DNA of 47,455 nucleotides from a virus (Duplodnaviria; Caudoviricetes): the IMG/VR virus record IMGVR_UViG_3300035659_000028, positions 1-47,455 of that record, one strand, 5' to 3'. The position numbers and the translations under genes were made by a program. This document shows, piece by piece, positions 2,920 through 32,244 of this stretch; the first letter of the stretch is position 1, and each line of letters starts with the position of its first letter. The notes below the pieces were generated by a model. It saw nothing but the letters and a program-made list of their open reading frames with translations. It was not told the origin of the DNA and ran no database searches.

Positions 2920-5160
2920 TCATACCCCCTTGGCTTGACCTTCTTTGGCCCACTTGTTTATCTTAACACCCATGATAACTCTTTGACTGTTATCGGTCTC
3001 ATTCTCTCGGATGTGTACAGCGTTCATATATGTACACAAATTGCGAACGAACGTACCCTTTAGACACACGTTCCGGCCCTCACGGGTGATCCACCATTTC
3101 CACACAGCGTAAAGATAATCAACTGGTTCACCATAAGCGGGGTCAACTATGATACATTGTTTGGCGAACTCTACCATAGGAGACACAAACTCAAGAAATG
3201 CCTGATGGTGGCGTTGCGATATTGACGGTATGGCAAACTCATTGTTGGTATAAAGGTCTTTGAGGCCGCGTAAGGCAAAATTGATTAGTTTGCCTTGTGA
3301 GGCTTCAATATCAAGTTGGTCTTTAAGCGAAGTATCAGGATTATCTACAAACGTCTTGTTGAACGGCATGATAATGATACGCCGCTTTAGGGCTTGGTCC
3401 GGGTCTTTGAACGCTGGATAGTCGTTCATGGCGAACGTAAACCTACAACGGAGGTGAATATCCGGCATACTATCCTTGAACTTCACTTGGATGTTTATGG
3501 GGTCACGACCAACGATATTGAGTATGCGCTTCAAAACTACATTCTCCTGACCCCGTTGCATGGCGGTTTCATCACCTATCACAGCAGCCAATTTGCCCAT
3601 CAAAGACTCAAACCCGAAACGGTATGACAGTGAATCAAAGTCTGTAGTGGCCCAGTTGTTTCGCCCCAACATCGAGGTCATGGTACGGAGAACGGTGCTC
3701 TTGCCTGAACCGGGTGGGCCTTTCATCAACAGAAATTTTTCCTGGGACATATCTGGTACGATATTGTAGCCGAACCACTGGCTAAAGAACCGCACCCGTT
3801 CATCATCCCCTTCCACTATGTCAGGCAACACACTGTTCCAAAGTCTTGATTCTACTGACTCATCGAAGTTATATGGCAAGACGTTAAACGTAAACAAATC
3901 CGGTGTTGGGTTGTATAATGTGACCTTGCCTTTGATGTAGTCGTTGATGTCAAGGATACCATTTTTGAAAACCACAAGACGAACCGGGTCAGGCCCGTCC
4001 CTGTCATCTAACCAGACCGGCCAAGGTCTTTTGATGGGGCAGATGGCGCTACAAGCATCTATGACATCGTTTACCTTTGTCTTACTCGGTTTGTACTTCT
4101 TAATCACACCTTCATCAGTAGTGTAATCTTTGTCTTCAAGGTATTTATAAATGTCACCTCGTACTGACAGATCATCAAGTTGTTCGTAACACTTTCCGCT
4201 AAACTCCACAAAACCCTTGTGAAAAATTCGGAAATGCAGTTTCCCGTCTACTGTTTTGGTTCGCAACCACGCTTTTGCTATGGTCGGCCCTGCGTTATCT
4301 TCAAACGTACTTGACCCGAGGGTGGTTTCTTTGGTTTTTTCTATGTAATCCAACAACTCAGTTTGGGTCAATCCCGTTTGTTTCCACTGTCGTAGGTCTT
4401 TGATACCATCCGGGGGCATCACTTTGGAACAACTTACACGCGCATCCTTGAGTAAGGTGAATGTAGTTTCCATGCCCCTACGCCCGGCCCCGGCGTCGTT
4501 TTCTCCCACAATAATACAGTCGCATCCGCCCAAAAGGTCTGTAAGGTCTTTACCCCCGCCCAAGGCCGACGGTCTGCCAACTGCGGTAAAACCAAGGTCA
4601 AAGGCTGCACAGACATCAGAAGCCCCCTCTACAACCAGGATCGGATGTTCTGATGGGAGTAAAAGAGAAACCCGCCGTTGTCTGACTGGATCAAGGATGT
4701 GGAGAAAACCAGGGGCGTCCTCAGATAAGGGCCGGTCTGACCCCTCTGACACATGAACACAGACTACAGCGTTGGGATTCTCGTATTCCCCGTTGGGATA
4801 CATGCACCCATCTGACTTGTTACAAACAGGGCATGGATAATCGGGTGATACCCTAACCCAATTTCGTTGTTCATATCTGGTTGTGTGGGTTTGGTTCTTG
4901 GCGTATATCAACCCACGTTTAGAACCGGTTATGGCCATTTTCTTGCCGTTGGGATAGCGTTTGGTTATCCCAACTACAACCCCCTTACTGTTGCGCTCAG
5001 GGAACGTCCACGCCCAATGACCGTAGCCATCACAGGGGAGCAGACCAACCTCTACAGTGTGGAGTGAGGTCACAGATACGCCAAGTTGTTCTGAGAGTAC
5101 ACTGTAGAAGACTGGAAACTGGGCCAGATTTTGAACGTAAGTGTTGTGGAGGTTTTGCAT
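2920..5160 (-). CDS. Primase (TOPRIM) fused to D5/P4-type SF3 helicase
   Basis: VVEGASD, GENDAG, KDLRQW TOPRIM motifs; FKNGILD D5-N; Walker A GPPGSGKST, Walker B IGDE, motif C FAMN. Confidence 0.9.
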   Translation of the reverse strand: MQNLHNTYVQNLAQFPVFYSVLSEQLGVSVTSLHTVEVGLLPCDGYGHWAWTFPERNSKGVVVGITKRYPNGKKMAITGSKRGLIYAKNQTHTTRYEQRNWVRVSPDYPCPVCNKSDGCMYPNGEYENPNAVVCVHVSEGSDRPLSEDAPGFLHILDPVRQRRVSLLLPSEHPILVVEGASDVCAAFDLGFTAVGRPSALGGGKDLTDLLGGCDCIIVGENDAGAGRRGMETTFTLLKDARVSCSKVMPPDGIKDLRQWKQTGLTQTELLDYIEKTKETTLGSSTFEDNAGPTIAKAWLRTKTVDGKLHFRIFHKGFVEFSGKCYEQLDDLSVRGDIYKYLEDKDYTTDEGVIKKYKPSKTKVNDVIDACSAICPIKRPWPVWLDDRDGPDPVRLVVFKNGILDINDYIKGKVTLYNPTPDLFTFNVLPYNFDESVESRLWNSVLPDIVEGDDERVRFFSQWFGYNIVPDMSQEKFLLMKGPPGSGKSTVLRTMTSMLGRNNWATTDFDSLSYRFGFESLMGKLAAVIGDETAMQRGQENVVLKRILNIVGRDPINIQVKFKDSMPDIHLRCRFTFAMNDYPAFKDPDQALKRRIIIMPFNKTFVDNPDTSLKDQLDIEASQGKLINFALRGLKDLYTNNEFAIPSISQRHHQAFLEFVSPMVEFAKQCIIVDPAYGEPVDYLYAVWKWWITREGRNVCLKGTFVRNLCTYMNAVHIRENETDNSQRVIMGVKINKWAKEGQAKGV

Positions 5161-5189
5161 CAAGCGAGTCTCGGTCGTTGTAGTGTCAT
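5160..5189 (-). CDS. 9-aa upstream ORF MTLQRPRLA coupled to primase
   Basis: AGGGG RBS, ATG at 5189, TGATG overlap with primase ATG. Confidence 0.5.
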   Translation of the reverse strand: MTLQRPRLA

Positions 5190-5457: not shown

Positions 5458-6261
5458 TTAGACCTTGCTTGTCTGCCGTAGCACAATTTCCTTGACCTGA
5501 TACCACTGTTCCTCGGTGATCTTGGACTCGTCCTCGTTAACCGCAACTACTGCCTTGAGCCATGCTTCATTAAGCGCATCATCTGTTACGTCATCCCGCT
5601 TCAAACTGTAACAGGCAGTGTAAGCATCATCAGCCGAGCACCTACCCACAACAGTGGCCTTGGGCAACTTGGGTGTACCCTTGGGTGGTCTGCCTACCTT
5701 GGGTTTATCCGGGGCCTTGGGTGTCTCTGATGCAGGCATGGGAGCGGGAACAGGAGTAGGAACACTAACAGTCTTGGCTGATACTGGCTTGGCCGCTACC
5801 TTAGTACTGGCCAGGACTTGGGCGTATCTGGCTTGAAGGGCTTGCACGTCTTTGGCGTCGAGTTTCTGGACTGTTCTGGTCGGTGTTGCATCGAGTGTGT
5901 CAATCCACGTTACTTTGAGTGTTGTGTTTTCATTGAAGGTGCTTTCTTCAACCCGAAATGCTATAGGCGTGTCAGTCATATTCATTTCGCGCAGAACCAT
6001 AAAGTCACCTCCGTCCCATCCTATAACTTTTTTGAGTTGTTGAAGGTGCAGGGTTCCACGATCTTTACTGTCGATCAAGACAAGCCAGGCTTTAATTTCG
6101 TTAACCTCTGGGTCTGTTGGAAGATAGTTTCCGCTATCCGGGTCATAGACCTCAAGGGCTTTGAGGGCCATTTCTTCTTGTGGGAAGCCGCCCGGCGATT
6201 GGCTAAGACCCGCATCTGTGATAACACCATGATAAAACCCTGTATGATTGATTAGACTCAT
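5458..6261 (-). CDS. Putative ssDNA-binding protein (DUF669-like N-domain, Pro-rich linker)
   Basis: Beta-rich N-terminus; position next to Sak4-like ATPase, the usual SSB slot. Confidence 0.5.
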   Translation of the reverse strand: MSLINHTGFYHGVITDAGLSQSPGGFPQEEMALKALEVYDPDSGNYLPTDPEVNEIKAWLVLIDSKDRGTLHLQQLKKVIGWDGGDFMVLREMNMTDTPIAFRVEESTFNENTTLKVTWIDTLDATPTRTVQKLDAKDVQALQARYAQVLASTKVAAKPVSAKTVSVPTPVPAPMPASETPKAPDKPKVGRPPKGTPKLPKATVVGRCSADDAYTACYSLKRDDVTDDALNEAWLKAVVAVNEDESKITEEQWYQVKEIVLRQTSKV

Positions 6262-6474: not shown

Positions 6475-7320
6475 TTAGTTCCCCTTAAAAAGTAGTTGCC
6501 ATAAACTGTTGTCATCCTTGGTACTAAACGATATAATCGATTCTTCCAAAGTCCGGGATTTAGCGTAGAAAGCGTTATCTCCCCTGGTGTCTATTACGTG
6601 GGTAGAATCACCTAACGCTCTTTTTTTGCCTTCTGGAACAATAGTTTGTTGGTGGCGTATTCTGAAAATATGGTCGGCCCACTGACACCACATTTTTAAC
6701 ACGGACCATTTTTCACTGTGATACAAGTCTGGGCCTTCTTTTAGGTATTCTTGACCAATATCAGTAGTATGTTTATTACAAATCAACTGACAAATTACAA
6801 TTACGTTCTTTCCGGCTTCGATCAATTTATCAAAATCCAAAAGAGGAAGTCGCATCGCATCCCATAAATGTTTATATCCTTTTCCCCAACCATAATCCTC
6901 TATGTGATCTGGTTTTAATCCTGGTTGGCCTTTTGCATTTCTTGCAATAACAGTTCTGAGAACAAATTGTTCCGCAAAGCGTTGGAAAAGAGTACCAGTA
7001 TCAACAACTACAGTCTGGCAATCCAAGTCAAGACACGCACCAAGCGCCCCACGCACATCTTCAAATGTGTTGACACTTGGTATATGTCTCAGGAGTTCCC
7101 CTGTTTTGGGATGATGGAGTTTGCGCCCGCCGTCGTCAAGGCCAATGAAAACCGGATTGGGGGCCATTGACGCAAGAGTAGTTTTACCCATGCCGGTCTC
7201 CCCGTAGAGAATTATCTTTTCACCAGTCTTAGAGCCATCCCATTGTTCAATAGCGAACTGTTTGTTGGCTGTTGCCGGTCTTGGTGAATCCTGTTTAGGT
7301 GGTAGTGGTCGTAATGCCAT
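6475..7320 (-). CDS. Sak4-like/AAA_24 ATPase (single-strand annealing recombinase family)
   Basis: ILYGETGMGKTT Walker A, VVVDT Walker B, YGWGKGY, AKSR C-terminal motif. Confidence 0.85.
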   Translation of the reverse strand: MALRPLPPKQDSPRPATANKQFAIEQWDGSKTGEKIILYGETGMGKTTLASMAPNPVFIGLDDGGRKLHHPKTGELLRHIPSVNTFEDVRGALGACLDLDCQTVVVDTGTLFQRFAEQFVLRTVIARNAKGQPGLKPDHIEDYGWGKGYKHLWDAMRLPLLDFDKLIEAGKNVIVICQLICNKHTTDIGQEYLKEGPDLYHSEKWSVLKMWCQWADHIFRIRHQQTIVPEGKKRALGDSTHVIDTRGDNAFYAKSRTLEESIISFSTKDDNSLWQLLFKGN

Positions 7321-7574: not shown

Positions 7575-7737
7575 TATCTATCCCCCCACAGATCACGTTG
7601 AATGATAACTGGCTTGGCTTAAAACTTGTTACAGTTTTTGCCATAACAAAAACACTGTTGCAGTGAGGACACTGGATTCTATCTCCTGGAACAAACGGTT
7701 TCTTAGACCACAATTTTTTGATGCGTTTCCAAAACAT
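7558..7737 (-). CDS. 59-aa hypothetical with CPHC motif (below ORF-track cutoff)
   Basis: MFWKRIKKLWSKKPFVPGDRIQCPHC...; TAATG coupling to upstream gene. Confidence 0.5.
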   Translation of the reverse strand: MFWKRIKKLWSKKPFVPGDRIQCPHCNSVFVMAKTVTSFKPSQLSFNVICGGIDNGANS

Positions 7738-8894
7738 TATTTACTACCTCCTATCTTTTTGAAATTATCAGGCACAACATCTGGCCCAATGTCCAAGTGA
7801 TTATAGCAAAAATCTATGTACGAACAGCGGTATGTATTTTCGCACTGGTTTTCGTTCCTCCACCACCTGTTATGCAGGCCCATCTGCCGGATGCTGTGAT
7901 AGATGTTGAATAGTTCCCACTCAAATGTTTCAAGATCGTTACTCTGGTGAACTATCTCACGCCGGGCGAAGTAGAACTCAGGGCGTTGGGTTATATCCTG
8001 GAGCAACCTGGCCCCGTACATTTCCGGGGTTTCGCGGATAGCGAGCGTACCTTCTTTTGCGCCGAGTTCAACTGAGGTTAATTTACCGTTTACTACAAGT
8101 CCGTCAGTATCCGGCGGACAACTAACTTTGAACTGTTCCCCGCAATACAGCCCATCAACTACGAACTTCTTACTCTCGGCCTGGGTCAACTTCTTCGGAC
8201 TAATCTGGGGTTTGTGCCACACATCATATAGTACACCGCACATCCCCAAACCAAGTTGCTTGGCCGCATAAGTGTAAAGCCGGGTCTGAGTATCAAGGGT
8301 CAAGTGACCCCAATAGGTCGAATCGGAGTCCACGTTCTTGCTGGTACTTTTGTATTCATGGACAAACCTATTGGCCCCGGTTGAGAACACCCGGTCGATC
8401 TTGCCGTTTAACTCAACTTGGAGCTTACGACTTGTAATCGGGGACAGGAGCGGCAAGTTGAATTTCTGTTCAAGTTGTTCGACTCGATAACCTACATCGT
8501 TGTAGTACCACTGATAACCTACCAGGGAATAGAGGAGTTTAACACGTTCTGTTTCCCACTCCTCTATGGTTTTGGACACGGGCGGCATGGAATAGGTTTC
8601 ATTAAGGTGGCGCACAACAGCATCCATCGGGTCATCTGGAAACCGGCCTGAACCTTGGCAGAGGACACAGTTGGGGTTGGGTCGTAACGCCATTGGTTGT
8701 TGCGCACATTCGCACATCCCGCCCGGTTTCATATCCGCTATTTCATGGATACGATGCCAGTTTGTTCCCATGCGTTGGCTCTCAGTATCTTCAATTGGAA
8801 CGAGACCCAGACCATAACGATAATAGTAACGCATCGGACAATCTTTGAAACAACCGATACTGGTCGCGCTGAGGCGTATTGAGTTAATTGTCAT
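7737..8894 (-). CDS. PD-(D/E)XK Cas4/RecB-like exonuclease
   Basis: LSAT..CP N-terminus, E..F, GKIDR, EYKST, QTRLY, C-terminal C-x5-C-x5-C Fe-S-type cluster. Confidence 0.88.
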   Translation of the reverse strand: MTINSIRLSATSIGCFKDCPMRYYYRYGLGLVPIEDTESQRMGTNWHRIHEIADMKPGGMCECAQQPMALRPNPNCVLCQGSGRFPDDPMDAVVRHLNETYSMPPVSKTIEEWETERVKLLYSLVGYQWYYNDVGYRVEQLEQKFNLPLLSPITSRKLQVELNGKIDRVFSTGANRFVHEYKSTSKNVDSDSTYWGHLTLDTQTRLYTYAAKQLGLGMCGVLYDVWHKPQISPKKLTQAESKKFVVDGLYCGEQFKVSCPPDTDGLVVNGKLTSVELGAKEGTLAIRETPEMYGARLLQDITQRPEFYFARREIVHQSNDLETFEWELFNIYHSIRQMGLHNRWWRNENQCENTYRCSYIDFCYNHLDIGPDVVPDNFKKIGGSK

Positions 8895-9265: not shown

Positions 9266-10201
9266 TTATTCCCTCAATCTTCTTTCAGTCAACTCTATCT
9301 GGCTTTGGCGAATGTCAATCCCAATATATCCCCGGCCTAACCTTTTAGCTTCAGCGCACGTCGTGCCCGACCCCAAGAAGGGGTCAAGGACAGTTCCCCC
9401 CGGCGGACAGAATGACTTGACAAAGAACTCAGCCAATTTTTCGGGGAACGGCGCATCTGTCTCGTGGGCAAAATTTGATCCCATGTGACCTTTGCCCATT
9501 GCCCCACAATTAACTGTTACTCCGCAATCAAGAATATCCAAATAATCTCCAGGATTACATAAATTGGGGGGCACAAAGTCCTTTGGTAAATTAACTGGGT
9601 CGAAATAAACATGGGAAGGCTTTACAACATTTACCGTTTCCCCATCTTTACGACGATCTGTTTGTTTCCCTGTTCCACCCCATTGATTAACGCGGCTCCC
9701 ATCCTTTTTCCGATTAGAACAAGGCCCCCCCGGACCATATACCGGGACATGGCCACAAGCAATGTTATCCGACCACGGAAGTTTCCCCGGTGGTGTGACA
9801 CAGATGACATACTCGTGATTACACTTTAACCACTCTTTTCCGCCACTACCGGGCACACCAAATCGTTGGAAGATAACAGGTCGGCGTAGATTAAACCCTA
9901 CTCTATGTAAATCGGCCATAAGCAACACCGGAGTGCAGGACCATTTATACTGTCTGGTCTTGCCTTGCACCACAAACGCCACCAGTCCCTTGCACACGCG
10001 ACTTGACGCACGGAACACCTCTACCATCCAATCAACCCATTGTTGTCCCTTGAGATTGAAGTCGATGCCATACGTGCGCGCGTCTTCGTAGGGTGGTGAA
10101 CCAAACACCAAGTCAACTGAGTTGCCCGGCATCCCAACCATGACCTCGATACAATCCCCGCATATCAGGCGCTGTGTTAGTAGTCTTGGTCGTTGTATCA
10201 T
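9266..10201 (-). CDS. DNA amino-methyltransferase (N4-C/N6-A, beta class)
   Basis: GDC start, SPPY motif IV before VLDPFLGSGTT motif I. Confidence 0.92.
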   Translation of the reverse strand: MIQRPRLLTQRLICGDCIEVMVGMPGNSVDLVFGSPPYEDARTYGIDFNLKGQQWVDWMVEVFRASSRVCKGLVAFVVQGKTRQYKWSCTPVLLMADLHRVGFNLRRPVIFQRFGVPGSGGKEWLKCNHEYVICVTPPGKLPWSDNIACGHVPVYGPGGPCSNRKKDGSRVNQWGGTGKQTDRRKDGETVNVVKPSHVYFDPVNLPKDFVPPNLCNPGDYLDILDCGVTVNCGAMGKGHMGSNFAHETDAPFPEKLAEFFVKSFCPPGGTVLDPFLGSGTTCAEAKRLGRGYIGIDIRQSQIELTERRLRE

Positions 10202-10635
10202 ACCAGCCCTTGCATCATCTCAACAAGCTCTTCAACCCCGTGTACAACCAGATACACCCCACCAACCTCCCGCACGTCAACCATCCGCTTTTGTTGGATT
10301 GCGCTAAGTCTGCCTCCGAACCCGGCTTTGGTCTCGATCTCAAAGTGCCTTCCATCGAAGAGTATCCCTATAATGTCTCCAGCACCTTTGATCCCGTATG
10401 TAGCAAAACCATGTCCAAAGTCTCCCGCTCCGCAATCGTGGCGGTCGTGGAAGATGCGATGTTGTTTGAGCCACTGTCGGCACTCAGCCAGAACTCCGGC
10501 CTCCGGCAACCCCTTAACAGGTACAGTAGGATGAGTTGATATAGACCCATCTTTGGCCTTGACTTGCGGGCGAACCCCTGTCTTGGTTGCTTGGTAAGCT
10601 GTATGGGCTTCGTCCAGTTTTTGGCGTTTAGTCAC
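10198..10635 (-). CDS. VRR-NUC family endonuclease/resolvase
   Basis: E..V, GAGDII, IETK, LSAIQ. Confidence 0.85.
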   Translation of the reverse strand: MTKRQKLDEAHTAYQATKTGVRPQVKAKDGSISTHPTVPVKGLPEAGVLAECRQWLKQHRIFHDRHDCGAGDFGHGFATYGIKGAGDIIGILFDGRHFEIETKAGFGGRLSAIQQKRMVDVREVGGVYLVVHGVEELVEMMQGLV

Positions 10636-12569
10636 AGTGTTTCTCCTATCTTAATCTCAGTATCAACTGGCAACCCTTCAGCCCAAGCCGGGATTGTCCG
10701 CATGATAGCGGCTTGCCGCTCGGCAATCTCCTCGGCCTGGTCTTTGGGTAGAATAGAGCGGGTATCATCGTGGATATGCAAAGTAATAGGTATGCCAACT
10801 TTCTCGCACTCCAATATCCAATAGCCAAGTAAATCACGGGCTATGGCTTGGTCTATGTTCTCGGTGATCGACCCGCCCCATAGTGCCCCATCGTGATACT
10901 TGATAGAGTTTTTTTTGTCAAGTTTGGCGTGGCGATAATAGAGTACGCGCCCGGATGGAAGTTGAATATGAACAGTTGTTCCCTTGCAATAAAACTTAGT
11001 ACAACCGACTTTCGGTTCAAGATGGGGGAATCGCAGACATTGGCGAAACGCGCACTCTACATCACGCCAATACTCAGGTATTTTTGAGTACGTGGTACGA
11101 TATGTGTCAATGAGTTTTTTGACAAACATAAAGTCATATTGCCCAGAGTCGAACAACGGGCGAAGCGTTGGGTTTGAGAGGCAATTATCATAGAATCGGG
11201 TAGCGCCCATTCCATAACCTGCACCAAGTATGGTATCTTTTCCAAACCCACGCCTGATTTTCAACATAATGTAAAGTGGCTTGGGGTCAGTCTTGCGAGG
11301 GCTACGTACTGGATGCCGAAACAATCCAGTGGCAAATTGTGAATACACATCCTCACCTTTAGCGAAACCGTCAAGTAGGTCTTGTTGACCCGCAAGCCAA
11401 GCCAATAACCGAGCTTCAATTTGTTTTGAATCCACTGTACACACTACGTAGCCAACAGGGGGTTTGATTAAAGTATGAATTTCTTGCATTAACGGGTCGT
11501 TTTCTTGGCCGCTTCTTCCCTCGCCCGCCATGTTTTGTAAGTTAATACCCTCTCCACCAGACCAGCGCCCAGTGTGGCCCCCATAGTAATTAAGCGGTAC
11601 TCTGAGTGTTCCGTTGTTGGCCTTAACTTGAGCAACCAAACTTGTTATGCGTTTGATATGAGTAGGCCACGATTTTACTGCAAGCCTTGCCACTATAAGG
11701 TCTCGCACTTCTTTTTTCGGATGTACGAATAATTGTTGACACGCTTCATCTGTTTTGGAAAGGGCTGGGATGTTGCCGCGTTTGCCTTCTTTCATGGGTA
11801 CTTTTTCGCCATCAGGCAAAACGTCATCGAGGTATTGAGAGAATTTTTTGCTTCGTAGTTCTTTTGGAGTGTGGCCTGAATCTTGTACAACTTTAGCTAT
11901 CTTAGTTCGCATTTGGACTTTGAGTTTAGGCGCGGTTTCAGTATCAATGACAAATCGTTTGTGTAACCAAAGATCAAGCGTATGCCGGGCAAGTTGAAGT
12001 TCAATTTCAGGATTGGTCAACTTGGGGAGTAGGATTTTAGCCAAATCCGTTTCAAGTTCTACGTCATTGATAGCGTATTCTCGCAAAGCTTGTTGCTGTT
12101 CCGGCGTCATTGTAACCCAATGTAGCCCCTTGAAATTCATGGTCTCGCCTTTGGGTTTTAAGTTGAACTCCTTGGCCATATCTTTGAGTCTGTGGGACAT
12201 TCGAGAATCATAATGAGAGGCCAAGTCTTTGAGGTCTATAATGTATTTTGGAATGATACCAAATTTTTCTTGTAGGATGGTAATGTCAAACCGGGCATTT
12301 TGGATTAGCCAAGTTGCATCATCAATCCAGTTTACTTCCATAGCACCGACGGCTTCTATAACTTGTTTCACCCCACCTTCAAAGTAAACCTCATCTGAAT
12401 CAGGCCACATCCAACCAACACCTGTCAACTCAAACCGAGGATCGTTTATGTACTCTATCGTGGACATTTTGGACAGACTGTATTCGTTATCAAAGTACGT
12501 CTCAAAATCGACCACCAAGATGTCTTTAGGATAACCAGCTTGTTCAAGGATAGACCGATAATCAGACAT
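10632..12569 (-). CDS. polA: DNA polymerase family A with 3'-5' exonuclease
   Basis: DFETY ExoI, YAINDV ExoIII, TGRWS/NLQN, DSKQIEAR motif A, RRGFGKDTILGAGYG motif B, IHDD motif C. Confidence 0.95.
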   Translation of the reverse strand: MSDYRSILEQAGYPKDILVVDFETYFDNEYSLSKMSTIEYINDPRFELTGVGWMWPDSDEVYFEGGVKQVIEAVGAMEVNWIDDATWLIQNARFDITILQEKFGIIPKYIIDLKDLASHYDSRMSHRLKDMAKEFNLKPKGETMNFKGLHWVTMTPEQQQALREYAINDVELETDLAKILLPKLTNPEIELQLARHTLDLWLHKRFVIDTETAPKLKVQMRTKIAKVVQDSGHTPKELRSKKFSQYLDDVLPDGEKVPMKEGKRGNIPALSKTDEACQQLFVHPKKEVRDLIVARLAVKSWPTHIKRITSLVAQVKANNGTLRVPLNYYGGHTGRWSGGEGINLQNMAGEGRSGQENDPLMQEIHTLIKPPVGYVVCTVDSKQIEARLLAWLAGQQDLLDGFAKGEDVYSQFATGLFRHPVRSPRKTDPKPLYIMLKIRRGFGKDTILGAGYGMGATRFYDNCLSNPTLRPLFDSGQYDFMFVKKLIDTYRTTYSKIPEYWRDVECAFRQCLRFPHLEPKVGCTKFYCKGTTVHIQLPSGRVLYYRHAKLDKKNSIKYHDGALWGGSITENIDQAIARDLLGYWILECEKVGIPITLHIHDDTRSILPKDQAEEIAERQAAIMRTIPAWAEGLPVDTEIKIGETL

Positions 12570-12929: not shown

Positions 12930-14078
12930 TCACTCCAAAATAATCGGGAACCTTGCTGTTGCCCCGTAACGGGGGTGGATAATCTCGAACGCCTGAGACG
13001 GTCGTTGGAACCGCGCCTTGATCTTGATTGAGTATTCGTTGAATCCTATAAGCGATCCTACCATCCGGTAGTCCTCCCCTGTTAGGTCTGTATGGTAGTG
13101 CCCGAAGTAATTCAAATCAGCCCGTGTCGATGTATTCCAGTTGTCAATTGCCTTCCGTAACGGAATATGGACCCCACCTACGCCACCTGAGTATCGGATA
13201 TTATCCCCATGAGCAAGACGGATAACATATTGGTACACTTTCAGATATGTCATATCCCCCTGGGGTAGGAGAAATCGAATCTGTTTGTTGCCGCGAGCCT
13301 CAAACCACCGGGCCACGAGTTGATATATCAACCAGTCCAGATTAGTCTCTACCCGTTTTTTGGACATGATTTTCTTAGTGATTCGCCCGTGATTTCCGCA
13401 TACACAAGGCACAATTATCTCTTTGGCTTTCGTCTCTTTAGCCAGGAAATCCAGTCCAGATACCAAATCCTCGAATACACGAAGAACAGCTTGCGGGGGA
13501 GTCAAATTGTTTGTGGCTACATATTCATCATGTATCCAGTTGTTAATCATATCTCCCAGGAGCATTACGATAACTGTGTCTATCTTGCTCCTTGATCGGC
13601 ACATATCAACAAGGCTTGCTGCGCTCTGGAATAACCTGACCGTTCTCCGCCGGGCTATATCCAGATTAAATTCATTTACTCCGTTCACTTCTACAGCAGT
13701 AACTTGTTCCTCATAGTGCCAGTCACCTATACCGATCATAGCTGTAGCCTCACCTTTGCCTCCGTGTTTGGGTTGGATTACTACTGGTTGGAAATTCCGT
13801 GACCAATCTGATACCGTTGTGAAAAGAGACAATTCCTTGTTGAGTTTGTCTATCTCTACCAATGCAACCTTGTACTTGGCCGCTACCTCTTGACTTTCTC
13901 GTCTGTGATATTCAGCAGTAGTATCCTCCGGCAAAGTTAGCGTGGCCCGAACATTGGCTACAGTTCCTTCTGATACCTCACAGTCCTTTGCGATTTTACG
14001 TCTGGATTCCCCTTTCAAAAGGGCCATTTCAATCAATCGCCGCGTAGTATTTTGTAGTTTAGGCGTAGGCATTAACAT
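12930..14078 (-). CDS. Calcineurin-like metallophosphoesterase with N-terminal HTH
   Basis: GDWH, GDMIN, GNHG, HGD, GHYH motifs; SRRKIAKDCEVSEGTV HTH. Confidence 0.88.
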   Translation of the reverse strand: MLMPTPKLQNTTRRLIEMALLKGESRRKIAKDCEVSEGTVANVRATLTLPEDTTAEYHRRESQEVAAKYKVALVEIDKLNKELSLFTTVSDWSRNFQPVVIQPKHGGKGEATAMIGIGDWHYEEQVTAVEVNGVNEFNLDIARRRTVRLFQSAASLVDMCRSRSKIDTVIVMLLGDMINNWIHDEYVATNNLTPPQAVLRVFEDLVSGLDFLAKETKAKEIIVPCVCGNHGRITKKIMSKKRVETNLDWLIYQLVARWFEARGNKQIRFLLPQGDMTYLKVYQYVIRLAHGDNIRYSGGVGGVHIPLRKAIDNWNTSTRADLNYFGHYHTDLTGEDYRMVGSLIGFNEYSIKIKARFQRPSQAFEIIHPRYGATARFPIILE

Positions 14079-14599
14079 TTCTCCAAATTGTTCTTAACAA
14101 CCTCAAGTGTATCATCTGCCCAACTACGTAATTCATTCCAAGGGCGAGGGACCAGTATTCCCATTCCTCCAGCAGCCACAAACTCAGATACGTTTTCGTC
14201 TTTGTCGTCGATTAGGAGACAATCAGGTCCGGCTAAAATGTGCTTGGAAGCTTGCGTAATGATAGTTCGTTTGGCATATCGGGGCAAGTGTTTTTCTATC
14301 CACAATATCTTACCTGTTCCTGATCCTGGATGGGGCATTGGGGTTGTAAGAAGATATATGTTACCAAACCTCGATGCTATTTCGTCGAGAATTTGCTTAC
14401 CATCGTGCATCCATTCGAGGTTAGCCCAAAAATTTATGTCACAAACGGCGTTAAATTTCTCAAAGCTAATCCCAAAATACTTGTAATAACACCATTCATT
14501 CAATGCCGGGTGATGATAATCATAGTTCAACCCAAATGCCTCGAACGTGCCTTTATTGAAATTAACCAACACCCCGTCCATATCGAGAAAAACTCTCAT
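14072..14599 (-). CDS. HAD 5'(3')-deoxyribonucleotidase (NT5C-like)
   Basis: FLDMDGVL motif I, K..W, LIDD motif IV, PWN. Confidence 0.9.
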   Translation of the reverse strand: MRVFLDMDGVLVNFNKGTFEAFGLNYDYHHPALNEWCYYKYFGISFEKFNAVCDINFWANLEWMHDGKQILDEIASRFGNIYLLTTPMPHPGSGTGKILWIEKHLPRYAKRTIITQASKHILAGPDCLLIDDKDENVSEFVAAGGMGILVPRPWNELRSWADDTLEVVKNNLEKC

Positions 14600-14836: not shown

Positions 14837-15682
14837 TCAATATCCTCCTGGAATCAGTTTAGTACGGTCAACAGGTTCAATTTGTTTCACTTTATCCTTG
14901 AGTATTTCATGTAACCGCCCCATGATATTGAACAACTGGGCGCATAAAACATCCTCGATTTCAACTGGGCCATGATTATCCTCAGCAACATAACCCTCTG
15001 TCAATAACCAAGCGTCCATGAAGTGCCGCCCATTGCTACTATGGTATGTCTCTTGGGGAATCCCTTTCTTCCAATTGTCGAACTCTCGATAATTGCCATC
15101 AGACTGTAGCCTATGTTTGTCAAGATATTGTACGTACCGACGTAAGACAATGGGTGACAACGCTTTGACATAGTCCAATTTGCCCTGGACCGTATCGCGC
15201 GTGGCTCCTGTAGCAAACTCTCGAATAGCCATCACCGTTGGGTTGAGAACCAGTGATATTGAGGGTTCTTCTTTTACTTGCGCTTCACCACAGGCCCATG
15301 CTTCGCCGCAGACCCGCGCTTCACCACAGGCCCATGCTTCGCCGCAGACCCGCGCTTCACCACAGACCAGTGCTTTGCCATAGACCCGCGCTTCACCATA
15401 GACCCGCGCTTCACCATAGACCCGCGCTTCACCACAGACCCGTGCTTCACCATAGACCAGTGCTTTGCCATAGACCCGTGCTTCACCATAGACCAGTGCT
15501 TTGCCACAGACCACTGCTTCACCATAGACCCGTGCTTTGTCATAGACCATTGCTTCACCATAGACCAGTGCTGAATCCGCTACATAAGCAGTGTCTTGTA
15601 CCCATCCTCCTCCATTGGAATGTTCGTGCCACTCGCTCAGTTTTGCGTCCGGGAATATATTCGTAACTATCTTAAAACTCAT
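14837..15682 (-). CDS. Hexapeptide-repeat domain fused to dATP/dGTP diphosphohydrolase-like (DUF5664-type) domain
   Basis: (GEARVY)n repeats then FATGATRD..GKLDY...DNWKKGIP...RH...A.LFN. Confidence 0.75.
   Translation of the reverse strand: MSFKIVTNIFPDAKLSEWHEHSNGGGWVQDTAYVADSALVYGEAMVYDKARVYGEAVVCGKALVYGEARVYGKALVYGEARVCGEARVYGEARVYGEARVYGKALVCGEARVCGEAWACGEARVCGEAWACGEAQVKEEPSISLVLNPTVMAIREFATGATRDTVQGKLDYVKALSPIVLRRYVQYLDKHRLQSDGNYREFDNWKKGIPQETYHSSNGRHFMDAWLLTEGYVAEDNHGPVEIEDVLCAQLFNIMGRLHEILKDKVKQIEPVDRTKLIPGGY
15280..15572 (-). repeat. 18-bp-period tandem repeat encoding G(E/K)A(R/L/W)(V/A)(Y/C)
   Basis: Repeated CTTCACCATAGACC-type units. Confidence 0.95.
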
Positions 15683-17571
15683 CTCACACCTCCTAAACTA
15701 AGGTTGTTACCGTACTTGATTCGCATCATTTCTTCAACCCCACTCCCCGCTTGTCCGGCTTGGGTTATCTTGCGCGCTTCCAGAATCAAATCATAGTCGT
15801 TTACCAAACTCGCAAACTTCAAATCAGGCAGCCCATGTTGGCGAACGCTAAACAGTTCACCTGGGCCACGTAACCGAAGGTCATGTTCAGCTATTTCAAA
15901 GCCATCGTTGCACTGTTCAATAACCTCAAGCCGGGCTATGGAATCTTGGTTTGCAGTCTCAGCCATAAGAAAATAATATGCTGTACCTTTGGCGCGGCAT
16001 ATCCGTCCGCGTAACTGATGAAGTTGCGACAACCCGAAGCGGTCGGCTCCTTCAACGATCATTACCGTAGCATTACTGCAATCAAGACCAACTTCGGCTA
16101 TGATCGTGCTAACCAGAATATCAATGTCCCCCTTCAAAAATCGCTGGATAATAGCAGTTTTATCCTTTGATTTTCCAGTAAGTAGGACTATACAATAATC
16201 GCGGAACCTCTGGCAAATTATGCCATAACCATTGACCGCTGATTGTTCCTGTTCGTCATCTCCTATGCGGGGATAGATAACATAAGCTTGTCTGCCTTTG
16301 GCCAATTCCCTCTCAACAATTTCGTACATTGCTTCTCGTTTTTCAGAAAGAACCTGGCGCGTAATCACCGGACCACGCGCAACAGGTTGCTCTCTGATTT
16401 CGGAAATCTCCAAGTCCGCAAAAACGGAGGCTGCGAGGGTGCGGGGTATTGGAGTCGCCGATACGAGGAGGAGGTGAGAGGATTTGCGTATCTTAGATTT
16501 TTGGATCACTCCAAATTTTTGTACTTCGTCAACACAAACCAAAACAGCGGAAGAAAGTATTGATTCATCGTTTAGAATTGCGTGTGTGCCAACAGTAATT
16601 AGCGCTCCATTATCTTGCCCGCTTTTAGTTGTTAGTTGTAAATCAGACCACTCCATGTTTTTGAGAGTATCAAAATGTTGCTGGGCTAAGATAGACGTAG
16701 GGGCCAGAATTACCGCCCGATAGCCTTGAAGTGCGCAACCAATCGCTGTATAAAATACGACCGCTGTTTTTCCAGAACCAACCTCGCCATGAAGCAATCT
16801 TTGCATCGGCTTCCCGCTTGCAAGATCGCGCCTAATATCCTTTACAGCTTGCTCCTGTTCTTGAGTAAAAGAATATGGAAAATAGGATTTTATCTTTCTG
16901 TCGATGTCCAAACCCCACGTTACTGGCTGTGAAAGTTGACTTTGACGACTCTTCCGTCGTTCAGCCATAGCAAGTTGATAACACAATGCCTCGTCAAACT
17001 TGAGACGAGTCAAAGCCTGTTGCTGGCTCTCTTTTGACACAGGGAAGTGAAGCGCATCAAACACCATAGCCCTGTCAAACCCATCTACCATAGGCGGCAA
17101 CTCCACGTTAGCCAAAACCTCCTTGAGCGCCGCCCGGATCGTTTCATTGTGTACCCCATAAAACCCGCCCGCAATATCAGACCAATTTGGCTGAGTAGTG
17201 GTGAAGCGCGGTTGTTGAAGCGCGCCATTATGAAATTTGCCCCAAAACGTCACCACCATACCCGGTTGAAGGTGCTGAACAACAAACTGTTGGTTGTACC
17301 AAACAGCTTTACATTGGCCAGTCCCGTCATTCAAAAGTGCTTCGACTATAGGCACGCGCGTTGGCAAACGACTAAGTCTCATTATCTTGGCCCAGACAAC
17401 AACGTACCCTTCTTTAGTGTCTGCAATACTGGTAGTACCTGGGTAGATATAGTGAAGCGGTTGATACTCAAGCAAGTTGCCTATTGTCTCGATACCCATT
17501 CTTTCAAGTTCTTTGGCGCGGGCTGGTCCTATGCCCTTGACGTACTTTATTGATTGATTCCAATTATACAT
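15679..17571 (-). CDS. recG: ATP-dependent DNA helicase RecG
   Basis: KGIGP N-terminus, OB wedge, PMQRLLHGEVGSGKT, DEVQ, SATPIPRTLA, RFGLSQLHQLRGR, TRG motif DLRLRGPGE. Confidence 0.95.
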   Translation of the reverse strand: MYNWNQSIKYVKGIGPARAKELERMGIETIGNLLEYQPLHYIYPGTTSIADTKEGYVVVWAKIMRLSRLPTRVPIVEALLNDGTGQCKAVWYNQQFVVQHLQPGMVVTFWGKFHNGALQQPRFTTTQPNWSDIAGGFYGVHNETIRAALKEVLANVELPPMVDGFDRAMVFDALHFPVSKESQQQALTRLKFDEALCYQLAMAERRKSRQSQLSQPVTWGLDIDRKIKSYFPYSFTQEQEQAVKDIRRDLASGKPMQRLLHGEVGSGKTAVVFYTAIGCALQGYRAVILAPTSILAQQHFDTLKNMEWSDLQLTTKSGQDNGALITVGTHAILNDESILSSAVLVCVDEVQKFGVIQKSKIRKSSHLLLVSATPIPRTLAASVFADLEISEIREQPVARGPVITRQVLSEKREAMYEIVERELAKGRQAYVIYPRIGDDEQEQSAVNGYGIICQRFRDYCIVLLTGKSKDKTAIIQRFLKGDIDILVSTIIAEVGLDCSNATVMIVEGADRFGLSQLHQLRGRICRAKGTAYYFLMAETANQDSIARLEVIEQCNDGFEIAEHDLRLRGPGELFSVRQHGLPDLKFASLVNDYDLILEARKITQAGQAGSGVEEMMRIKYGNNLSLGGVR

Positions 17572-17589
17572 TAGAACCTATCCTTACCA

Positions 17590-17705: not shown

Positions 17706-17711
17706 GAATTG

Positions 17712-18083
17712 TCAAAATTTCTCTCTCACTAACGCATCATGCGCAATCGGGTCATATCTCTCAGCAGTCATACTGAACAAAAACCCATGCTTGCGCAAAA
17801 GCTCTACCTCTTTTTTGAGCGAAGCAAGCGTGATGCCCAACGACGTGCACATTACAGCCCGGCTCACATGCTGGTCATACAATGCCAAAACAGCCCTTTG
17901 CCTGGGGTCAAGTATGGGGAACATCTGCGGAGCCTTGCGTTTAGTTGACCTGAGTAGGGCCTTGACTTCTTTGACGGTTATGCCCATTATACCAGCTGTA
18001 TCATCTATAGGGAATCCCTTAAACTCATGGTGACACAACCGTATGGCTTGTTCTTCTTGCTCGGTGATTATTCGTTGTTCCAT
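17712..18083 (-). CDS. Tandem HTH (sigma70 region-4-like) transcription regulator
   Basis: ITEQEEQAIRL...TAGIMGIT and LDPRQRAVLAL...SLGIT; GGAG RBS. Confidence 0.65.
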   Translation of the reverse strand: MEQRIITEQEEQAIRLCHHEFKGFPIDDTAGIMGITVKEVKALLRSTKRKAPQMFPILDPRQRAVLALYDQHVSRAVMCTSLGITLASLKKEVELLRKHGFLFSMTAERYDPIAHDALVREKF

Positions 18084-18089
18084 TGCAAT

Positions 18090-18114
18090 CTCCATTATAC
18101 GTAGATTGGCTACT
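18090..18114 (-). promoter_or_regulatory. Conserved box AGTAGCCAATCTACGTATAATGGAG, copy 1
   Basis: 25/25 identical to 23410-23434 (opposite strand). Confidence 0.8.
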
Positions 18115-18121
18115 TTTTGAG

Positions 18122-18385
18122 TCACATTTTTGGCAAGTTTTTTCGCACCCAGTCCATACTACCCCTACAATCGTTACCACTGCGCGCAATTTTTATTGCC
18201 CGCTCCACAATATGGCCCCATTTTCGCACTTGTGACACCAGATTCCTGCATCGGCGACATAACACCAGACCAGACGCAGGATCAAAACAGAGCGAGCGCC
18301 TCCAACTTATCTCGGTATCGCAGGCCGGGCAACGCCGGTCTTGTTTGTCAAAAAATTGAACGCGGATATGGTGGGGAGTTGTCAT
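18122..18385 (-). CDS. EndoVII/HNH-like Zn-finger protein, paralog 1
   Basis: QDRRCPAC-x20-CRRC. Confidence 0.6.
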   Translation of the reverse strand: MTTPHHIRVQFFDKQDRRCPACDTEISWRRSLCFDPASGLVLCRRCRNLVSQVRKWGHIVERAIKIARSGNDCRGSMDWVRKNLPKM

Positions 18386-18672: not shown

Positions 18673-18711
18673 AATTTCTCCTGCAAACGTAAATAATTGG
18701 TTCGGGTTTCC

Positions 18712-24983: not shown

Positions 24984-25335
24984 GAGTCTTAGTGATTTTC
25001 TGAAAGAAATCGGCGAGGAACAAGTGACTATCACACTTGATGGACGGCCCTATACGTGTACCAAGACTGAGGCCCTCGCCCGCAAGATGTATGTTATGGC
25101 AAATGGTGGGGTCTCAGAGGAACGTGGGGTTGATGGCAATATGGTTCAGGTGTACCACAACCCCAACCCAACTGTAGCCAAGACAATACGTGAGTTCACA
25201 GAAGGCAAACCAGCAGTTGAGATTCAACCTGAAGTCCCTGGTAACAAAAAGGCTGGGCGGTTCGACGGCAGTATAAGCAAACGGCTCAACGAGAGGTTGA
25301 AACCGGTACAGAGACCGACGATAACCAAACCATGA
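24976..25335 (+). CDS. Terminase small subunit candidate
   Basis: Directly upstream of TerL; EALARK...A...TEGKP helical pattern. Confidence 0.6.
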   Translation: MAKSLSDFLKEIGEEQVTITLDGRPYTCTKTEALARKMYVMANGGVSEERGVDGNMVQVYHNPNPTVAKTIREFTEGKPAVEIQPEVPGNKKAGRFDGSISKRLNERLKPVQRPTITKP

Positions 25336-27239
25336 CCAAACCAGAACTCCCAACTCCGTTTCCGAACACACCAGACTTGTGGACCGACCCAAAAACAGGT
25401 ATCGTCGTGCCCAAACATTCGGAACGCAACTTGGCGTGGCGTTTGGACCTATTGGCTAAGGCAGAGAAGGATGAAGGTATGCAACGGGACTTGTTAGCCG
25501 CTTGTGCTGAATCTCAGTTGTTCTTCATCAATGCGTTCTGTATGACTTATCACCAGTTCGATGTTGGACCTGACGGTAAACGACTTGAGTCCAAGTATCC
25601 TGACCAACCCATGATAACGTGGCCTATCCAGGATGAGTTGCTTTCGATATTTGAGACCAACATCCCCAAAGGTGAGGATGTCTTGATTGATAAAGCCCGC
25701 GATATGGGTGCGAGTTGGTGTTGCATCGACTACATTCATTGGTTGATGTTATTCCGGCCCAAGACCACTGAACTCCTTGAGATGAGCCGTAATGAAGATT
25801 ACGTGGACAAACCTGGTAACATGAAGGCGTTGTTCCAGAAACACGACTATATCAATCAATGGTTGCCCAGTTGGATGCGACCAGAAGGTTGTTTTCTTGG
25901 TCAAGTTAATCGACAACACTTGCACTGGTATAATCCCATTACTGGTATTACACTTGATGGTGAGTCCACAACCAAACACGCAGCAAGGGGTGACAGGCGG
26001 TTTGTTGGTTTGCTTGACGAGTTTGGTGCCACTCAGAATGGTGCTGCAATGCGTATGGCTTCGCGCGATTCTTGTCTGGCACGTATCATTAACTCAACCA
26101 GTGTGCCAGGTAGTGAATATAATAAATGGCGTAGCGATGGTACTATCAAGGTTTTTGTTATGCCATTTTGGGAACACCCTGATAAAGGCGCTAATCGGTA
26201 CGTTAAACAGACTAAGAATGGAAAATGGGAAATACGTTCACCTTGGTTTGATTCCGAGGAGAGAATACGCGGGGCCAAACACATGGCCACTGAAGTCCTG
26301 AGAGAGGACACTGAACCAGGTTTGTCATTCTTCGTACAGAATAACATAGACAACCATGAGGCCATGTACGCCAGACCACCTAAGTCAGTATGGGACATCA
26401 AGTGGCGCAAGAATCTGGGTTATGAAGACCTTGCCCATTATATCGCGGACAAAGACCTTAGTATGATCCTGGCCAGGGAACAAGCACTTGGCCCACTCAA
26501 GATTTGGTGTGAGTTGAAGGATGGTAGGTTGGACCAAACCAAATCATACATCTTCGGTATTGATACCGGCAAGGGTCAAGGCGCGTCGAACTCAGTCATT
26601 TCAATCAAGTGTAAGGAGACTGGTGAGAAGGTCGGTGAGTGGGCCGACGCTACATACCCTCCGTATGATTTCGCCCAGATAGTGCTGGCTGTTGCCCTTT
26701 GGATTGGCGGGGCCAAACCGCTTCGATTGCCGTTCCTTAAGTGGGAAAAGAATGGACCGGGTTGGGATTTGGGTCGTATCATAGTCAAGAAGTGCCTGTA
26801 CCCATATTTTTATCGTGGTGAGACGACTGATAAGATCACTACTACTAAGAACAAAACGTATGGGTTCCAAACAGGTCGTGACAGTAAGTATATGTTGTTA
26901 TCGGCATACGACAAGGCTTTAACCGACGGGACGTATATCAACCGGTCAAAAATAGCACTGGAAGAAGCCAGAACCTATATTCATTTTGAAAATGGCGGGG
27001 TAGGCCCCGCTATGTTGATGCAGGAAAGTGCTACAGCCAAACGCACACATGGTGACAGAGTTATGGCTGATGCTCTTACGATTGAAGATAAAGAGATGCC
27101 CAAGGTTAAAACGGATAAAAGTGGTCCGTCTGTGTATTCAGCCGGGTATCGGTTTTTGCAATACATCAAAAACAAACGACGGCAGGGGAAGTTGGGGTTT
27201 CCTAAAAAACGCATTTTTGACTTTTCCGGGGTCTGTTGA
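25332..27239 (+). CDS. terL: Terminase large subunit
   Basis: KARDMGAS Walker A variant, LLDEFG Walker B, NST, GIDTGKG and HGDRVMA RNase H acidic residues. Confidence 0.92.
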   Translation: MTKPELPTPFPNTPDLWTDPKTGIVVPKHSERNLAWRLDLLAKAEKDEGMQRDLLAACAESQLFFINAFCMTYHQFDVGPDGKRLESKYPDQPMITWPIQDELLSIFETNIPKGEDVLIDKARDMGASWCCIDYIHWLMLFRPKTTELLEMSRNEDYVDKPGNMKALFQKHDYINQWLPSWMRPEGCFLGQVNRQHLHWYNPITGITLDGESTTKHAARGDRRFVGLLDEFGATQNGAAMRMASRDSCLARIINSTSVPGSEYNKWRSDGTIKVFVMPFWEHPDKGANRYVKQTKNGKWEIRSPWFDSEERIRGAKHMATEVLREDTEPGLSFFVQNNIDNHEAMYARPPKSVWDIKWRKNLGYEDLAHYIADKDLSMILAREQALGPLKIWCELKDGRLDQTKSYIFGIDTGKGQGASNSVISIKCKETGEKVGEWADATYPPYDFAQIVLAVALWIGGAKPLRLPFLKWEKNGPGWDLGRIIVKKCLYPYFYRGETTDKITTTKNKTYGFQTGRDSKYMLLSAYDKALTDGTYINRSKIALEEARTYIHFENGGVGPAMLMQESATAKRTHGDRVMADALTIEDKEMPKVKTDKSGPSVYSAGYRFLQYIKNKRRQGKLGFPKKRIFDFSGVC

Positions 27240-31146: not shown

Positions 31147-32244
31147 ATGGGTTACAGACCAGAAGATATTGCAGACCTTCTTGCGACGACACTGGCTGAC
31201 CTGCCCGATCAGGAATTGGAATATGCTCTGCAACACAATGAGTATTTCTGGACCTCTCTGTTCCAGGAAAAGAATATCCAAGTCGACGGCGGGACCAGTA
31301 TTCAAAGGAAGGTTTCGTTTGACACCTCCGGTAATGCTCGGTATCGTTCAATGTTTGATACCGATGAGCCTAAGTTCGGAGACAGTATTCATACCATCGA
31401 AGTGCATTGGGCGTTGGTCGGTACTAATGCTTCGTGGGATGAGTTCGAGATTCTTCAACAGAAGAATTCGGAAAAAGGTTACGTTAATCTCGTTCAGACA
31501 CGGAAGGACAAGTCGATTATCGACCTCGCTGACCTCATCGAAGAGACGATGATTGCTGCTCCCGCGTCTGCTACGGATAAAAAAACGCCGTTTACTCTAC
31601 CCTATTATCTGAGAGTCCTTAATACGGCTGGGACTATCAATACTTCGGCTGGGTTTAACGGCGCAACCGTTACATACGGCAATGGTACAACTGGTACAGT
31701 CATTGCTGGCATCGACGCCGCTGTTGAGGAAAAATGGCGCAACTGGTGTGCCCCGTACACTACAATTAACAATGCGTTCCTCAAGGCATATCGTCAGGCG
31801 TGTATCAAGACCAGGTTCCGTCCACCGATTACCCTGGATACTCCTTTGATGAAAGAACGTAAGGCAAAGATGGTATCGATTGCTGGAACTGGTATGGTAC
31901 TTGACATCATGGAACTGGTGGACAAGAAAGATGACAACCATACAGCGACTGGTAAGGAAGCCCTTGGTGGGTTACTGGTAGTCAACGGTGATTTGGTGAG
32001 TATCAACCGCACCCCTATTCTCCCCTTGGATACGTTGGATAGTGCGAGTTACACACCCCTTTACACCATTGACTTGGCCTACTTTAAACCAGTTGTTCAC
32101 GACGGATATTGGATGAAAGTTACACCCCCTATGGTTGGTGGTAGGATGCAACATACTACCTACACGTCGTTCATTGATGGCGCGCATAACATTCTTGTCG
32201 AGAACATTCGCAAGTGCGGTTTTGTTCTGCACAAGATTACGTAA
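31147..32244 (+). CDS. Major capsid protein
   Basis: 365 aa, DGGTSI early motif, position after scaffold. Confidence 0.8.
   Translation: MGYRPEDIADLLATTLADLPDQELEYALQHNEYFWTSLFQEKNIQVDGGTSIQRKVSFDTSGNARYRSMFDTDEPKFGDSIHTIEVHWALVGTNASWDEFEILQQKNSEKGYVNLVQTRKDKSIIDLADLIEETMIAAPASATDKKTPFTLPYYLRVLNTAGTINTSAGFNGATVTYGNGTTGTVIAGIDAAVEEKWRNWCAPYTTINNAFLKAYRQACIKTRFRPPITLDTPLMKERKAKMVSIAGTGMVLDIMELVDKKDDNHTATGKEALGGLLVVNGDLVSINRTPILPLDTLDSASYTPLYTIDLAYFKPVVHDGYWMKVTPPMVGGRMQHTTYTSFIDGAHNILVENIRKCGFVLHKIT

Follow-up and report, generated by a model that had tools for sequence, protein, structure and literature searches.

The window analysed here is the whole 47,455-nucleotide stretch of IMG/VR virus record IMGVR_UViG_3300035659_000028 (Duplodnaviria; Caudoviricetes), and our subject is the gene on its minus strand, at 15679..17571, that encodes a RecG-family helicase of 630 residues. 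We consider it probable that this phage carries an intact RecG whose likely origin is a single capture from a Phycisphaerae host, and that the protein likely assists the phage replication and recombination module as an accessory junction translocase driven by ATP. Judged from its sequence, the protein is a member of the RecG family by homology, as indicated by its wedge, motor, TRG, predicted fold and descent. By the same measure, it lacks the marks of a canonical cellular RecG, namely a score above the NCBIfam cut-off and the motif II sequence DEQH.

A complete but compact RecG

The gene is identified by Pfam, NCBIfam and fold matches. Its single 630-residue frame runs without an internal stop, and the plus strand at 15679..17571 holds no open frame. 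The RecG_wedge, DEAD, Helicase_C and RecG_dom3_C domains all exceed their Pfam cut-offs, with RecG_wedge (PF17191) reaching 51 bits against a cut-off of 23. The wedge/OB domain spans residues ~1-210, where Y92, Q94 and F96 align to F204, Q206 and Y208 of the Thermotoga maritima enzyme, and is followed by the SF2 motor (residues 235-530), the TRG hairpin and loop (residues 540-580) and a C-terminal tail of the Planctomycetota type. The extreme C-terminus, reported to be required for the activity of Escherichia coli RecG (PMC4027168), exists in the window protein in this Planctomycetota form. The predicted structure (predicted local distance difference test (pLDDT) score, 84.7) has T. maritima RecG (1gm5) as its top fold match (E 6e-36). 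The recG profile outscores the mfd profile (458 versus 282 bits), and the unannotated PHROG 34613 matches at 5.8e-90.

The RecG models rank top among the NCBIfam matches, yet the protein stays below the cut-off of every one of them (TIGR00643, 458 bits, cut-off 659.4; NF008168, 516 bits, cut-off 718), and none of the 21 viral RecG records exceeds a NCBIfam RecG cut-off. At 630 residues, against a median of 701 for cellular RecGs (n = 155), the protein is compact through short deletions, about 60-70 residues below cellular size. Set against a Sedimentisphaerales RecG, its N-terminal domain is short of 4+4+4+8 residues, motor lobe 1 of 12 and the region near the C-terminus of 9. The original prediction of a full-length RecG thus stands for the domain set, while the size and the NCBIfam scores call for the word compact.

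Conservation was assessed in 74 aligned RecG proteins and 155 cellular RecG rows, with the essential residues of T. maritima RecG taken as given in PMC6213257 and the wedge residues as given in PMC7889586. K268, T329, D348, S371-A372-T373, Q519/R521/R523/R526, R568, G569, G571 and Q578 are invariant (74/74), and E349 is kept in 73/74. The TRG residues R547, D564, R568, G569, G571, Q578 and G580, which include the GPG..hh..Q.G loop, are found in 74/74; wedge position 92 is aromatic in 74/74 and position 96 in 70/74. The wedge, helicase and TRG elements first noticed in the translation are thus all present, with the TRG residues kept.

RecG as an accessory gene of an uncultured phage family

The window phage belongs to an uncultured phage family with genomes of 42-54 kb that carries RecG. 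Among the 120 best homologs listed, ranks 2-101 share 43-69% identity with the window RecG; none of their 100 contigs exceeds 52,222 bases, and 21 measure 40-53 kb. Cellular-type homologs start at 37-39% identity, the sole named one among the matches listed being from Sedimentisphaerales. Many viral homologs with intact ATPase motifs therefore exist, contrary to the ATPase-dead protein without viral relatives that would have spoken against the original prediction.

The search returned 80 viral recG loci, of which 25 (two pairs being identical copies) have the window's replication genes beside recG; one more was later placed in the family, so that the module PolA-nuclease-exonuclease-Sak4-SSB (single-stranded DNA-binding protein)-primase adjoins recG in 26/80. 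Of the remaining 54, those placed in the tree group with cellular RecGs and are likely host flanks. The position of recG varies: it follows the helix-turn-helix (HTH) gene in the window's subclade and the primase gene in a second subclade, lies directly ahead of PolA in G039, and precedes the HTH gene in G047 and G054.

We searched 50 whole records for RecG (47 longer exonuclease-anchored and three PolA-anchored, from 160 loci); the anchors were built from RecG-carrying loci, and the RecG share is therefore inflated. RecG was found in 21/50 of these records, in 10 of the 27 that are at least 90% complete, and in 11/11 of the closest. In a gene-by-gene comparison of 31 genomes, the primase, PolA, terminase and portal clusters occur in all and RecG in 12. 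Mapped on the core-gene tree, RecG changes three times among 31 genomes and four times among 35, and the branching of the RecG tree inside sublineages is that of the replication-gene tree. RecG is an accessory gene of the phage family that is stably inherited within sublineages. If RecG had been gained once, in the ancestor, about six later losses would have to be assumed, as counted from the drawing of the midpoint-rooted tree; the alternative is a spread between sublineages after one capture, which fits the differing recG positions.

The metagenome scan covered 1/64 parts and returned only cellular-type RecG, and the genome scan covered 4/64 parts. A profile search among representatives of 50% clusters brought little more, because the window's subclade collapses to a handful of clusters.

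Several family members show further peculiarities. One viral RecG (L026:7122-10022) is 966 residues long, with an insertion of ~300 residues at motif I that matches part of phrog_32482 (2e-46) and no Pfam intein model, and is likely an intein; in another locus (L016:9614-11971), an HNH_3 domain stands in frame ahead of RecG within one open frame. Several PolA genes of L010, L012, L018 and L019 are 920-1000 residues long, compared to 650-700; this length, and the splitting of some of the genes, suggest inteins or introns. Genome G010 (L460-L462) has replication genes near those of the window, with terminase and portal on a very long branch, i.e. a swapped structural module.

Phylogeny, donor and host

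In a site-mixture tree of 40 rows, the phage RecGs form one clade (100/99) inside Planctomycetota RecG (98/93, 99/95, 98/91), sister to the Sedimentisphaerales-type rows (86/96), and a 62-row tree has the same shape. These trees were calculated without Mfd, from 62 and then 40 rows chosen out of 273 (the long row L068 and L037 were dropped from the 40), because in a FastTree analysis the Mfd outgroup had drawn the viral clade to the root and left the donor unresolved. The cellular RecG sample is biased toward what the search patterns caught. For the least diverged viral RecG, the only named taxa among the best hits are Planctomycetota or Phycisphaerae, at 42-47% identity. Viral and Planctomycetota RecGs have the signatures VYPRI, FSTRQHGLPD and a K(F/Y)G..L.L..V tail in common. 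The phylogeny against bacterial RecG that the original prediction had called for thus yields a viral clade and points to Planctomycetota as the donor, with the limit that a cellular Planctomycetota clade without the viruses is not rejected by the approximately unbiased (AU) test (p = 0.092).

The RecG of a more distant phage (L565:16973-19117; G053 = L037), which has its own SF2 helicase and Sak4, sits at the end of a linear contig. It falls outside the viral clade, beside a planctomycete RecG, and may represent either a second capture or a host flank.

The terminase large subunit gene (25332..27239, plus strand) served as family marker and as host probe. At E<=1e-30, it found matches in 8/401 genomes of the class of the Sedimentisphaerales metagenome-assembled genome (MAG), which we take to be Phycisphaerae, and in 1/251 genomes of the class of the Pirellulales MAG; there were none in 251 genomes each of the classes of the Anaerolineales and Chitinophaga MAGs. 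In a Phycisphaerae-class genome, a 112-kb contig includes a near-whole family member with a GC content of 63% (G308:C5 ~2200-40000; L547-L549); beyond it, the contig carries genes for citrate synthase, nitrite/sulfite reductase and ABC transporters. This phage has no RecG within the part seen and groups with a RecG-less clade, and for that reason the host of the window phage is one that we infer. Two near-identical provirus-like blocks (L552-L554; G151:C10, G255:C61) contain related terminase, portal and capsid genes, with no replication module in the parts fetched. The tree suggests that RecG was likely captured once, from a Phycisphaerae host, by an ancestor of the phage family.

A proposed role in replication and recombination

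The window genome consists of two opposed transcription arms. One holds the terminase, portal and podovirus-type capsid genes; the other holds, on the minus strand, a family A DNA polymerase with a 3'-5' exonuclease domain (PolA; 10632..12569), a small nuclease that is likely a VRR-Nuc-like junction resolvase (10198..10635; weak matches only), a PD-(D/E)XK exonuclease (7737..8894), a Sak4-like single-stranded DNA annealing protein (AAA_24; 6475..7320), a predicted OB-fold SSB that has a proline-rich linker and ends in a small helical domain (5458..6261), and a D5-like primase-helicase (2920..5163).

The RecG wedge is reported to bind branched DNA and to support ATP-driven rewinding, and T4 UvsW to do the same jobs (PMC3778716, PMC3016281). 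The prophage resolvase RusA is reported to depend on RecG (PMC1636454), and stand-alone VRR-Nuc proteins to cleave four-way junctions (PMC4103454). By analogy, a role in recombination-linked replication is our best inference for the phage protein. Following RecG biochemistry, the motor would run along the duplex with the wedge gripping the branch point, be it a fork, a D-loop or a Holliday junction. RecG could then reverse stalled forks of PolA and the primase-helicase, and would branch-migrate the joints that arise from the action of the exonuclease, Sak4 and SSB into four-way junctions, which the small phage nuclease would cut, similar to the way in which E. coli RecG feeds RusA.

A private copy would be useful because host RecG is loaded via host SSB, while it is likely the phage SSB that covers the DNA of the phage and that might in turn load the phage RecG. 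In E. coli, SSB loads RecG, by one account via its proline-rich linker (PMC7290993), an element that the phage SSB also has. When RecG and the phage SSB were folded together, the predicted complex scored 0.43 and none of three controls rose above 0.00; at least 40% of contacts agreed between runs, and the partner pLDDT was at least 71. This mark is reached by 116/157 solved complexes and 2/215 mismatches. At scores of <=0.60 there are only 18 of the solved complexes together with both mismatches, and the pair is a textbook one; this pairing is therefore a weak lead only.

Several observations weigh against our reading as a whole. First, the replication module runs without RecG, because 17 of the 27 near-complete relatives lack it and none of the 29 RecG-less records among the 50 has a Helicase_C match. 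Among the non-core open reading frames (ORFs) of at least 250 residues in 19 RecG-less genomes, no helicase-like one was found by eye and by a Walker A pattern, a search that a divergent helicase could escape. RecG as a stand-in for another SF2 helicase was rejected, the RecG-less records showing no substitute. Second, the label of the nuclease rests on weak matches (phrog_93, 1e-7; phrog_5702, 8e-4; Pfam VRR_NUC at E of about 0.02 in 2/10 family members), and the gene, present in 12/12 RecG-carrying genomes, also occurs in 12/19 RecG-less ones. Third, the likely hosts have RecG in 98/101 and RuvB in 96/101 genomes. Fourth, Sak4 is an annealase and not a RecA-type strand-invasion enzyme, so that priming from D-loops would depend on RecA from the host, unless replication mainly takes another route; the window genome yielded no RecA-type recombinase. 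Fifth, the window's subclade combines drift at motifs I, II and VI with the loss of ~12 residues from motor lobe 1 and a long branch. Finally, besides the AU test described above, one homolog (P0078) is a fragment labelled as a Ketobacter MAG, on a 49-kb contig, which we take to be co-binned phage DNA.

With most relatives lacking it, RecG would improve replication and not enable it. The idea that it fills a gap in the host was rejected on the host counts above; as the hosts have both RecG and RuvB, the gain from a phage copy must be one of dose or targeting. In the post-PolA slot, a phrog_1770 Holliday-junction resolvase replaces the VRR-Nuc-like gene in L499:8558-9244 and its homologs in G033, G034, G040 and G041; these five RecG-less genomes belong to one clade.

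It is possible, if rather unlikely, that the main job of the protein is instead the control of R-loops or 3' flaps, either shutting R-loop origins or stopping re-replication where forks meet. T4 UvsW is described as unwinding origin R-loops (PMC3016281), and many recG phenotypes have been ascribed to unchecked re-replication (PMC5055574). The two opposed transcription arms of the genome would suit such a task, and the residues conserved in the 74 aligned proteins fit it equally well. However, no origin or R-loop site was identified in the genome, and UvsW acts late, whereas recG sits in the early/replication arm in every placement seen. The RecG-less relatives, moreover, share the genome layout. 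Our analysis thus favours junction processing during recombination-linked replication.

Drifted motifs and selection

The drifted sequences HGEVGSGKT, DEVQ and QLRGRICR are present in the 630-residue frame, as originally read. In motif I, H stands in 68/74 of the aligned proteins and E in place of D in 68/74. Motif II is mostly of the DEFQ type (F in 60/74, Q at the last place in 63/74), with DEVQ in the window, compared to DEQH in 153/155 cellular RecGs. Motif VI has C for G in 71/74. A DExQ motif II is also found in the Mfd compared (DEEQ) and in 2/155 cellular RecGs, and the basal viral copies retain the cellular forms QGDVG/DEQH/RVGR. Based on this distribution, the drifted motifs are best described as traits of the subclade and not as decay.

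These coupled changes, together with the long stem branch (0.66), could be taken to mean that the motor of the window's subclade is retuned or weakened and that the protein works chiefly by clamping onto junctions or by competing with host RecG. We regard this as improbable: the Walker A lysine, the DE pair, the SAT motif and all motif VI arginines are kept, DExQ occurs in the other proteins just named, and the cellular motif forms of the basal copies stand against it as well.

The ratio of nonsynonymous to synonymous substitution rates (dN/dS) of recG is 0.125-0.198 in six informative pairs, similar to those of PolA (0.115-0.12) and the exonuclease (0.095-0.141). These values are rough because dS is 1.1-2.0, and the pairs that include the window are saturated. 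The proposal of a domesticated RecG gains support from the single viral clade, inheritance that matches the core tree, purifying selection and a donor pointed to in Planctomycetota, Phycisphaerae.

A doubtful role in counter-defence

The original prediction had also considered the removal of CRISPR R-loops, for which we found no support. E. coli RecG does displace Cascade in vitro, but only with a single-stranded DNA trap and with 5-10% of replication restored, and the authors tie this displacement to helping adaptation (PMC6546356). Primed adaptation is reported to require RecG (PMC4678826), and RecG-dependent adaptation favours the host. Cas3 was detected in 14/101 genomes of the likely host order, a lower bound because the genomes are mostly incomplete.

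Anti-CRISPR (acr) genes are small and lie in acr loci with a dedicated anti-CRISPR-associated (aca) HTH partner. The phage RecG has 630 residues and lies in the replication arm, its HTH neighbour is also found in 9/19 RecG-less genomes, and nothing similar to an acr-aca unit was seen at the recG locus. A broader version, in which overproduced RecG strips Cascade-type R-loops or a host-like helicase evades helicase-sensing defences, would draw on the Cascade displacement, on the patchy presence of RecG (four changes among 35 genomes), which is typical of accessory counter-defence genes, and on a retron reportedly triggered by UvsW-type phage helicases. Given the limits of the Cascade experiments, the low Cas3 count, the HTH distribution and the stable inheritance of recG within sublineages, we hold this to be very doubtful.

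More speculatively, and with hardly better prospects, the protein might be a private R-loop sweeper that is loaded by the phage SSB, has been retuned in motifs I, II and VI and clears roadblocks including CRISPR interference complexes. If this were true, it would be a counter-defence acting on the DNA junction, independent of the Cas protein sequence.

Genome around recG

The window is a complete virus record, a circular assembly with direct terminal repeats of 127 bp (1..127, common to both record ends). A single 47,161-bp contig from the likely source run spans 15477-18800, and thus both recG borders, with even depth and no differences. The run of a second study holds 85% of the sampled words and spans the 3' border of recG without differences; in run X2, of which 76% was read, the middle of recG is uncovered. 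The GC content (0.464), third-position GC content (GC3, 0.435) and codon use of recG match those of the neighbouring PolA. No RNA dataset was listed as holding the window sequence.

That recG is flanking host DNA of a provirus, the product of a chimeric join or a passenger gene in decay is thus a negligible prospect, even though such a reading fits other records, such as GenBank MH643778, the one GenBank phage record inspected, where a canonical, Pseudomonas-type host RecG (1146 bits) follows an OxyR-like regulator gene, and most of the other 54 viral loci, which group with cellular RecGs: here a gene order common to independent contigs, the composition, the purifying selection and the unbroken read coverage of both borders, where a chimera had been named as the main danger to the original prediction, rule it out.

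Directly upstream of recG lies a gene for an HTH protein resembling sigma-70 region 4 (17712..18125, minus), which is conserved at that place in the window's subclade. The statement that recG opens the replication block holds only loosely, since this HTH gene precedes it and four ORFs separate recG from PolA. Bases 15679-15682 read TCAT, that is, ATGA on the minus strand, where the recG stop overlaps the start of the next gene, which bears out the coupling proposed earlier. This gene (14837..15682, minus) encodes a protein of 281 residues with a YdcK-type beta-solenoid, whose C-terminal domain falls into one cluster with the phage family's dATP/dGTP diphosphohydrolase-like proteins; the gene is no fixed partner of recG across the family. 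The solenoid consists of tandem hexapeptide repeats, and the repeat breaks the assembly graph. Further along the minus strand are a 5'-nucleotidase of the NT5C family (14072..14599) and a phrog_284 exonuclease-family protein with an N-terminal HTH (12930..14078).

Upstream of recG, we found no tRNA, no Rfam match and no common intergenic motif, and the folding z was +1.6; a TATAAT promoter candidate was rejected, as the match falls within the first codons. In L010 (~7140-7180), a tRNA-like 3' end, with a T-loop-like motif followed by CCA, stands right before recG and is not called by ARAGORN or Rfam. On the plus strand, the major capsid protein is of the podovirus type (31147..32244; NF033394, under cut-off), and a trypsin-like protease gene (24011-24787) precedes the terminase genes, as found in 14/31 family genomes.

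Relation to known systems

RecG counts as an enzyme of cells (and organelles), and fork-remodelling phages use helicases of their own, such as UvsW. The window protein resembles the bacterial RecGs of T. maritima (1gm5) and E. coli (9wm0) in its wedge, SF2 motor and TRG, in its fold, and in its catalytic and junction-stacking residues. It differs from them in being phage-encoded, inherited with a phage replication module, shorter and below the NCBIfam cut-offs, and in the subclade-wide changes HGEVG, DEFQ/DEVQ and RICR. The Sedimentisphaerales RecG is 38-39% identical to the window RecG and, compared with L169, 30% identical in the N-terminal part and 38-49% in the motor and TRG.

T4 UvsW is likewise a phage-encoded SF2 motor, described as a functional analogue of RecG (PMC3778716) that reverses forks and unwinds R-loops (PMC3016281). 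It belongs to another family, however, and the window protein matches phrog_16 only weakly (1.9e-13, in the motor), against 1e-137 for recG; the window phage thus carries the cellular enzyme itself. The RusA-RecG pathway of E. coli, in which a phage-derived resolvase needs junctions supplied by RecG (PMC1636454), is also comparable, except that RecG there is the host's, whereas here both would be phage genes, with a nuclease whose VRR-Nuc-like nature is weakly evidenced. Mfd shares the motor, the TRG and, in the protein compared, the DExQ motif II, but the window protein is without the Mfd N-terminal domains and has the RecG wedge.

Among 50,697 GenBank phage records, 24 contain a RecG-like match that spans 80% of the query, with identities of up to 35%, and BFVD entry A0A8S5RSW5 is RecG-like at 30% identity. 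No description of a phage-encoded RecG was found in titles and abstract openings, supplements and most subscription papers being outside this search. A survey of the replication proteins of dsDNA viruses does not name RecG in its main text either; its supplementary tables may bear on the point (PMC4889955). Neither RecG nor the notion that phages encode branch-migration helicases is new; what does appear to be new is a viral clade of RecG proper that is maintained by selection.

To conclude, a 47-kb phage spends 4% of its genome on a host-type fork-reversal motor although its host has one. The gene tree and the provirus-like contig both indicate Phycisphaerae, which makes this RecG a host marker; to our knowledge, phages of Phycisphaerae are little described. 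The compact natural RecG variants, with their coupled changes in motifs I, II and VI, offer material for studying the role of RecG in vivo, for which they are useful because sister phages with and without RecG exist.

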